Source: Eledone cirrhosa | Lineage: Eukaryota | NCBI GenBank assembly: GCA_964016885.1 | Contig: OZ024742.1 | Location: forward strand, 372,000,001 to 372,064,000 | DNA length: 64,000 bases | Reading direction: 5' to 3' | In this document: in pieces, positions 55,983 to 57,425 of the stretch | Numbering within the stretch: the stretch's first letter is position 1 | How the letters are laid out: the number at the start of each line of letters is the position of its first letter | Made by a program: the position numbers and the translations under genes | Notes under the pieces: generated by a model | The model's database searches: none | What the model saw: only the letters and a program-made list of their open reading frames with translations | What the model was told of the DNA's origin: nothing

Positions 55983-57425
55983 TTGGAATAAATGCTCTGA
56001 AATAGCGATATATATGTGAATATAGACATAGAATATTCGAAAATATTCTGTATGTTTATAATAAACATTTTGAAGACCTAATCGCTATAGAATAGAATAC
56101 GTCACGTATTACAATTAGATTCTCGATAAAAGCAAGGGAAGTAATCTACGCGTTTCATTCTTGTTAGAAATCATCAGGACTACATATCCAGTGCTTTTAT
56201 CGAGAATGACACAGCTAGAGACTTATAGAATACTTAGCTGTGTACAGGAACTGGTTTGAAAGAGCGGTTGCCGGTCCGGCAGAAATTAGAAATTGGAATA
56301 AATGCTCTGAAATAGCGATATATATGTGAATATAGACATAGAATATTCGAAAATATTCTGTATGTTTATAATAAACATTTTGAAGACCTAATCGCTATAG
56401 AATAGAATACGTCACGTATTACAATTAGATTCTCGATAAAAGCAAGGGAAGTAATCTACGCGTTTCATTCTTGTTAGAAATCATCAGGACTACATATCCA
56501 GTGCTTTTATCGAGAATGACACAGCTAGAGACTTATAGAATACTTAGCTGTGTACAGGAACTGGTTTGAAAGAGCGGTTGCCGGTCCGGCAGAAATTAGA
56601 AATTGGAATAAATGCTCTGAAATAGCGATATATATGTGAATATAGACATAGAATATTCGAAAATATTCTGTATGTTTATAATAAACATTTTGAAGACCTA
56701 ATCGCTATAGAATAGAATACGTCACGTATTACAATTAGATTCTCGATAAAAGCAAGGGAAGTAATCTACGCGTTTCATTCTTGTTAGAAATCATCAGGAC
56801 TACATATCCAGTGCTTTTATCGAGAATGACACAGCTAGAGACTTATAGAATACTTAGCTGTGTACAGGAACTGGTTTGAAAGAGCGGTTGCCGGTCCGGC
56901 AGAAATTAGAAATTGGAATAAATGCTCTGAAATAGCGATATATATGTGAATATAGACATAGAATATTCGAAAATATTCTGTATGTTTATAATAAACATTT
57001 TGAAGACCTAATCGCTATAGAATAGAATACGTCACGTATTACAATTAGATTCTCGATAAAAGCAAGGGAAGTAATCTACGCGTTTCATTCTTGTTAGAAA
57101 TCATCAGGACTACATATCCAGTGCTTTTATCGAGAATGACACAGCTAGAGACTTATAGAATACTTAGCTGTGTACAGGAACTGGTTTGAAAGAGCGGTTG
57201 CCGGTCCGGCAGAAATTAGAAATTGGAATAAATGCTCTGAAATAGCGATATATATGTGAATATAGACATAGAATATTCGAAAATATTCTGTATGTTTATA
57301 ATAAACATTTTGAAGACCTAATCGCTATAGAATAGAATACGTCACGTATTACAATTAGATTCTCGATAAAAGCAAGGGAAGTAATCTACGCGTTTCATTC
57401 TTGTTAGAAATCATCAGGACTACAT
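55983..57425 (-). mobile_element. Non-LTR retrozyme: about 4.65 tandem 310-bp units, each with a type I HHR
   Basis: Units start at 55983, 56293, 56603, 56913 and 57223; HHRs at 56141, 56451, 56761, 57071 and 57381; no ORF. Confidence 0.88.
56141..56183 (-). ncRNA. Minimal type I HHR (first of five copies)
   Basis: gtagtc-CTGATGA-tttct-aaca-agaat-GAAA-cgc-GTA-gattac, with a palindromic stem III (ACGCGT). Confidence 0.88.

Follow-up and report, generated by a model that had tools for sequence, protein, structure and literature searches.

The described systems closest to the locus analysed here are the non-LTR retrozymes of metazoans. Those of coral, mussel and axolotl (Rtz_331/Rtz_353) are tandem, non-coding, self-paired units with a type I hammerhead that co-occur with PLEs, and the sizes and sequences of metazoan retrozyme repeats are called species-specific (PMC7229834; statements from this and the other papers cited here refer to those parts of their text that were available). 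Ribozymes in one polarity are the rule for retrozymes (PMC11721086). A retrozyme counts as 'active' when at least two consecutive units carry a complete hammerhead; 75% of the vertebrate families have at most seven units, and one of nine predicted Xenopus retrozyme dimers cleaved in vitro and the other eight did not (preprint 10.64898/2026.07.22.740005). The canonical metazoan type I hammerhead cleaves as a dimer, the 'minimal' form being the one without helix III (PMC4209133), and HHR_Amex2 of the axolotl, which has a U.U at the base of helix II, also cleaves better as a dimer (PMC7229834). Among PLEs, the element of the anole cuts AT-rich DNA in vitro and starts reverse transcription inside the RNA downstream of the hammerhead, the main in vitro template of its reverse transcriptase being uncleaved RNA (PMC11167929), and the families of the Hydra clade are all reported to insert in (TA)n (10.1101/2021.04.23.441226).

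The array studied here occupies positions 55982..57425 of the window (the whole 64-kb stretch of Eledone cirrhosa DNA that was analysed) and consists of 4.66 identical non-coding units of 310 nt (34% GC), with the minus strand as the sense (ribozyme) strand. Its self-identity at period 310 is unbroken over 1444 nt, with 0 mismatches in four full units and in a fifth that runs to 57425, and it is flanked by (TA)n on both its 3' side (55545..55981) and its 5' side (57426..58886), neither tract being assigned a strand. The preliminary description had counted about 4.65 apparently identical, non-coding units inside (TA)n, which agrees with these values and with a longest stop-free frame of 59 codons on the circular unit. 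A coding circle (zeta-like) was ruled out because of this short frame and because 310 is not divisible by 3. No target-site duplication of the array is readable in the (TA)n flanks, and no further copy of the unit was found within the window. The region of the array is bracketed by two inverted copies (98.7%) of a 550-bp element at 52517-53062 and 58887-59436, and a satellite of ~25-nt units lies at 59797-64000, 3' of a 200-N gap.

Each unit carries one predicted type I hammerhead on the minus strand (five in total, C3 at 56177, 56487, 56797, 57107 and 57417); the core of copy 1 is at 56141..56183 (minus strand, C3 56177, U10.1 56170) and repeats at +310, +620, +930 and +1240. From the hammerhead consensus, the cut is predicted after GUA, between 56147 and 56146. 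The hammerhead descriptor, which also matched 4 of 20000 shuffles, gave one match per unit and none on the plus strand; a CUGANGA core is likewise missing from that strand, and Rfam gave no match on the plus strand of the unit at E up to 10. Within one unit, the best Rfam match is Hammerhead_HH9, aligned over the whole model (positions 1-77 of 77); its score of 19.2 bits (E 0.026) falls far short of the family's gathering score, which is 52. A run of Rfam over 54000-59500 returned mostly microRNA matches on (TA)n, which were dismissed as low complexity.

Helix I of the predicted ribozyme has 6 bp (pair probabilities 0.85-1.0) and is followed by an internal loop, 3 bp and a 16-bp clamp; helix II has four positions, the first of them a U.U pair like that at the base of helix II in HHR_Amex2 (PMC7229834); helix III has 2 bp within a 6-nt palindrome, the duplex of which was computed at -7.5 kcal/mol. 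It had been proposed that every unit contains a minimal hammerhead; the hammerhead stands, the term 'minimal' does not, since by the definitions of PMC4209133 this is a canonical metazoan type I form. The minimal hammerheads of PLEs (min-HHR) have a short helix I and a long helix II, whereas the 310-nt unit has the 6-bp helix I with its extension of internal loop and 16-bp clamp, a helix II of four positions, and a helix III. In the predicted fold of the monomer, bases on the U10.1 side pair with the conserved GAAA at a probability of 0.74-0.83, helix II reaches a probability of only 0.13-0.16, and the active fold lies 1.5 kcal/mol above the minimum. From this model we infer that the monomer would be weak and that cleavage of the unit would depend on dimers.

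For the minus-strand monomer the predicted fold is branched and not rod-like, with an energy of -77 kcal/mol (z -5.39) that 0 of 100 shuffles reached. The plus-strand monomer also folds strongly (z -4.98), and folding alone therefore does not give the sense strand. Both values support the earlier view of a highly structured monomer, and all six stems then named are exact inverted repeats, each where it had been placed, although the TGCCGG pair folds as 5 bp because of a 1-nt gap. The perfect 16-bp stem that extends helix I (arms 56192-56207 and 56119-56134, minus strand, within 56119..56207), described before as a clamp on the ribozyme, is longer than any stem in 500 dinucleotide shuffles (maximum 13) and is complete in four of the five hammerhead copies.

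With repeats of 310 bp (x 4.66) and a GC content of 0.34, the array lies within the range of metazoan non-LTR retrozymes (150-450 bp, GC <50%), and it shares with them a type I hammerhead (at 5/5 unit positions), a non-coding, highly self-paired monomer, and co-occurrence with hammerhead-bearing autonomous PLEs (two families with long frames in the same window); it thus resembles the coral, mussel and axolotl retrozymes (PMC7229834), and it also fits the 'active' definition (10.64898/2026.07.22.740005). Compared by description only, it differs from the families of PMC7229834, which are species-specific and heterogeneous, in that the unit is uniform and was met under 17 organism labels (see below), and the available text of that paper makes no mention of insertion in (TA)n, where the 310-nt array sits. 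Homology to PLE terminal repeats, which is seen in part of the retrozyme families, was not found against the two local PLEs: 24 of 57 Xenopus families match a known element, nearly always a PLE (10.64898/2026.07.22.740005, in the part available), whereas the 310-nt unit shows no significant similarity to the terminal repeats of either PLE-A or PLE-B (8/60 and 25/60 shuffles, respectively, scored as high). A comparison with six local elements on both strands likewise yielded nothing beyond shuffles (best 3/60 among 12 comparisons).

The hammerheads of PLE terminal repeats, those of the Hydra clade included (PMC4209133; 10.1101/2021.04.23.441226; PMC11167929), are similar to that of the unit in their short palindromic helix III, which suits cleavage as a dimer, in an internal 3' end past the ribozyme and in an AT-rich target, but the 310-nt unit, unlike PLEs, has no open frame. 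Viroid-like and satellite circular RNAs (PMC11721086) share with it a size of ~300 nt, a circularly closed structure and a self-cleaving motif, and differ from it in that the unit has a predicted ribozyme in one polarity, 34% GC, a branched fold and a chromosomal DNA form; symmetric rolling-circle replication, too, finds no counterpart, there being no plus-strand ribozyme and a chromosomal DNA array. The hammerhead pattern occurred at at least 92 loci of metagenome contigs, most of those listed being PLE-type hammerheads, and 0/92 among the matches listed were BLAST-similar to the unit at E 1e-3; a tighter pattern gave 0 matches in viral contigs and 0 in prokaryote genomes. In the literature covered, which mostly excludes subscription journals and was available in part, there is no report of the 310-nt family or of a retrozyme shared across species.

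Two PLE families with long frames are present in the window, both assigned from motifs and homologues (Pfam gave no family for either frame). The PLE-A frame (39931..42408, minus strand, 825 aa) shows a DKT motif, a CxCx5C linker, YRDD and YIGAT; judged by motifs, the DKT, the CxCx5C linker, the C-terminal GIY-YIG, the hammerhead and the insertion in (TA)n place it in the Hydra clade, and its best protein matches have 36-48% identity. Six PLE-A hammerheads with a long helix II are found in the window (C3 at 42845, 36691, 30536 and 15404 on the minus strand, 24608 and 4448 on the plus strand), and copies of the family terminate in (TA)n. As candidate partner of the array PLE-A comes first, since insertion of Hydra-clade elements is reported from (TA)n only. 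PLE-B (43837..48478, minus strand) has a 1216-aa frame at 44349-47999 (Cx4CxxC linker, YVDD, YIGET), terminal repeats of 519 bp that are 100% identical, a 3' end that joins (TA)n, and a hammerhead-like core at 44078 with a weak helix I; its best named homologue is from Octopus vulgaris (69% identity), and it is a candidate second mobilising partner. Because PLEs move horizontally, these homologues hint only weakly at an aquatic invertebrate as the host. Further features of PLE-A are an inverted pair at 15210-24936, a tandem array (period ~6155 bp) with microsatellite-rich spacers at 30208-43326, a hammerhead whose triplet is GUU and whose helix II region spans 116 nt, and two different 3' ends in use.

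Several other elements of the window were recorded. Two copies of an endonuclease-RT LINE at 48506-51946 and 11683-15122 (99.8% identical; RVT_1 and Exo_endo_phos in Pfam) end at (TA)n, one of the two with an intact 1045-aa frame. A 128-bp piece is common to 55370-55543 and 1766-1893 on opposite strands and ends in (TA)n. A perfect 96-nt palindrome occupies 55448-55543, where the piece doubles back on itself, and both copies break at one point, seemingly the loop of a hammerhead helix II. A third PLE, now decayed, probably had its 3' end here, and Hydra-like protein remnants lie at 275-1893. Between (TA)n tracts, 54295-55344 is a non-coding element with a type I hammerhead (C3 54387, minus strand) ~40 nt from its 3' end, an 8-bp helix I, a palindromic helix III, internal duplications and, at 55183-55300, an imperfect palindrome of 118 nt. 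Related (81%) hammerhead-like motifs are found near the (TA)n-joining 3' ends of 27942-29847 (C3 28035, minus strand) and 2125-2520 (C3 2216, minus strand); their helix II sequences differ and are still paired, and they form a further small family.

The two ends of the array differ in their relation to the ribozyme. In the 3' tail (55982..56146, minus strand), the last cut site and the (TA)n junction are 165 nt apart, and at the junction 2 nt (AT) are common to unit and flank; this junction may represent the start point of reverse transcription. At the other end, the 5'-most hammerhead (57381..57425, minus strand) begins 39 nt upstream of the predicted cut site, just outside the 6-bp helix I, and therefore lacks the 5' arm of the 16-bp stem. 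Because neither end coincides with a cut site, the array copy spans five intact cut sites. The array meets (TA)n at a 3' end that lies within a unit and shares 2 nt with the flank, and the 3' ends of PLE-A (~200 nt past the cut site, ~60 nt in an inverted copy) and PLE-B join (TA)n in the same way, which favours insertion by PLE reverse transcription; the polarity of the array would also fit the internal initiation described for the anole PLE. The (TA)n flank itself is not specific to PLEs, since nearly every element of the window, the LINE included, ends in (TA)n.

We consider it probable that a non-LTR retrozyme of the animal type, moving as a non-autonomous passenger of PLEs, inserted here recently and that the array was written in a single event. 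The minus strand would be transcribed as a multimer, in which adjacent hammerheads might pair through the palindromic helix III, cut after GUA and release 310-nt monomers that a host ligase of the RtcB type could circularise, as suggested by related retrozymes. A PLE protein, presumably from a partner such as those above, would then nick (TA)n and prime at a point within the unit, 165 nt beyond the cut site, from where copying would run across five intact cut sites before it stops. The preliminary description had regarded the array as a non-LTR retrozyme, probably moved by a PLE, with the look of rolling-circle cDNA of a ribozyme circRNA. Its reading of the anatomy is upheld (310-nt units, type I hammerheads, (TA)n junction, local PLEs), and rolling-circle copying is compatible with the array but is not singled out by it, as an uncleaved multimer or DNA duplication gives the same array. 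Nor is the perfect identity of the units specific to a rolling circle, because tandem PLE copies in the window are 99.97% identical and the terminal repeats of PLE-B 100%. Within the retrozyme reading, the five intact cut sites and the identical units are explained by a circular template and by an uncleaved linear multimer alike; we lean slightly towards the circle, and the multimer remains a serious candidate that we put somewhat short of even. An origin at the DNA level, in which unequal crossover or slippage multiplied in place an inserted monomer, or an inserted piece of an unknown PLE terminal repeat, and the hammerhead is a passenger, appears unlikely, although such amplification has been proposed for retrozyme arrays (10.64898/2026.07.22.740005), the window holds other near-perfect tandem and inverted duplications, and the array is known from one locus; against it, the hairpins of the unit form a self-contained, closed set in which each period holds exactly one intact ribozyme, the array ends with PLE-like polarity, and two sequencing runs (X1 and X10) show the same 310-nt period as a closed contig, which makes the period characteristic of the family, provided that their reads do not derive from this very locus.

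Public sequencing runs were searched with 29 sampled words of the 310-nt unit. Twenty of the 24 listed runs contain 0.76-1.00 of these words, under 17 organism labels and from 16 studies (2022-2025); 15 studies remain if one matching run is the source. The type was guessed as DNA for four of the 20 and is unassigned for the rest (an RNA library type is listed for 0/24), and their contig totals range from 4 to 3071 million letters. Four of the 24 runs (X1, X10, X20 and X21) were aligned to one monomer, and none showed flanks or loose ends around the unit. X1 yielded a single closed contig of 340 nt (310+30) at depth 11.9 with 0 differences, and X10 a single closed contig of the same length (310+30) at depth 34.2 with one difference (56170 A>T), contig depth not being a measure of copy number. 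In X20, a single 267-nt contig (depth 15.4) has 0 listed differences, a 48-nt gap and 5 unaligned letters; the gap (expected share 0.75), not divergence, explains the word share of 0.76. X21, the raw Hi-C reads of a second sample under label J, gave 0/12.8 million reads, where 3-18 would be expected for one array in a genome assumed to be 1-3 Gb, and X23 and X24, from a second sample under label H, contain 0.00 of the unit's words, although absence is not thereby proven.

The change in X10, seen in one contig, is U10.1 to A, by which a Watson-Crick pair with U11.1 replaces the U.U; this sole difference in 310 positions falls on the only mismatch of the ribozyme. The middle of the X20 gap (56122-56169) coincides with the predicted cut site, a pattern expected of a linear RNA after cleavage (one contig, a lead only), and one edge of the gap is the position of the X10 variant. 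A closed contig can also arise when a tandem DNA array collapses and its junctions into (TA)n are pruned, and the closed contigs are for this reason not proof of an RNA circle.

Because retrozyme repeats are called species-specific (PMC7229834), the wide distribution over runs needs explaining. We regard an artefact as the likeliest cause, with a confidence little above even: leakage between libraries from one repeat- or RNA-rich organism, or a small cobiont shared by the samples. It is consistent with the one contig each of X1, X10 and X20 (depth 12-34; 0, 1 and 0 listed differences; no flanks), with a word share in X20 that reflects a gap rather than divergence, with the dates of all runs that contain the unit (2022-2025), with sister samples without the unit (X21, X23 and X24, absence not being proven) and with the species-specific nature of published retrozymes. 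It is harder to reconcile with the involvement of 16 studies, with organism labels that may include close relatives, and with the fixed variant of X10 at a ribozyme-pairing position, because of which at least two versions of the unit must exist. A retrozyme truly present in the genomes of many species, where it would be a rare and polymorphic insertion owed to common recent ancestry or to recent horizontal transfer, is possible but doubtful, and part of the probability we grant it is ordinary close kinship. The 17 labels, the span of contig totals (4 to 3071 million letters) and the four runs guessed as DNA point in this direction, low depth and patchy occurrence fit one or a few loci per genome, and the X10 variant would fit selection acting on the ribozyme; however, no flank was seen in any of the four aligned runs, 99.7-100% identity of non-coding DNA across species requires very recent transfer, and the Hi-C reads under label J lacked the 3-18 hits expected (0 in 12.8 million; the genome size is assumed, and these reads do not amount to a test).

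Least probable, and in our judgement very unlikely, is a viroid-like or satellite circular RNA of external origin that passes from host to host, the array being an occasional DNA copy made by a host PLE reverse transcriptase. The spread over 20 runs, 17 labels and 16 studies, the closed 340-nt contig without flank in two of the three contig runs aligned, and the second samples under labels H (X23, X24) and J (X21) in which the unit was not met (absence not proven) would agree with such an agent, but the opposite strand lacks a hammerhead core, the fold is branched rather than rod-like, four of the 20 runs are guessed as DNA, no match was found among viral contigs, and a tandem DNA array pruned at its (TA)n junctions gives a closed contig too. 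An RNA replicon is, moreover, expected to vary far more than by 0-1 differences per 310 nt across three labels, and the observed differences are too few for it.

The 310-nt family fits a new animal retrozyme within a known class of mobile elements. The movement of animal retrozymes has so far been inferred. The array is a clean insertion that carries no mutations, its ends can be read, and two seemingly intact PLEs that end in (TA)n lie beside it; the template is thus defined, a priming site predicted and a choice of candidate enzymes at hand, so that the rolling-circle model can be put to a direct test. If its distribution is due to leakage, the family would be an ordinary new one, and surveys that rely on public runs to name the hosts of viroid-like circles would have reason for caution. 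If the presence in many organisms is true, it would contradict the statement that retrozymes are species-specific and would mean that ribozyme RNA moves between animals. That such a retrozyme has recently crossed many animal species at 99.7-100% identity, either with a TA-targeting PLE or as a circular RNA written into genomes as rare, polymorphic concatemers, seems unlikely to us; if true, it would be a living connection in animals between retrozymes of the genome and viroid-like agents.
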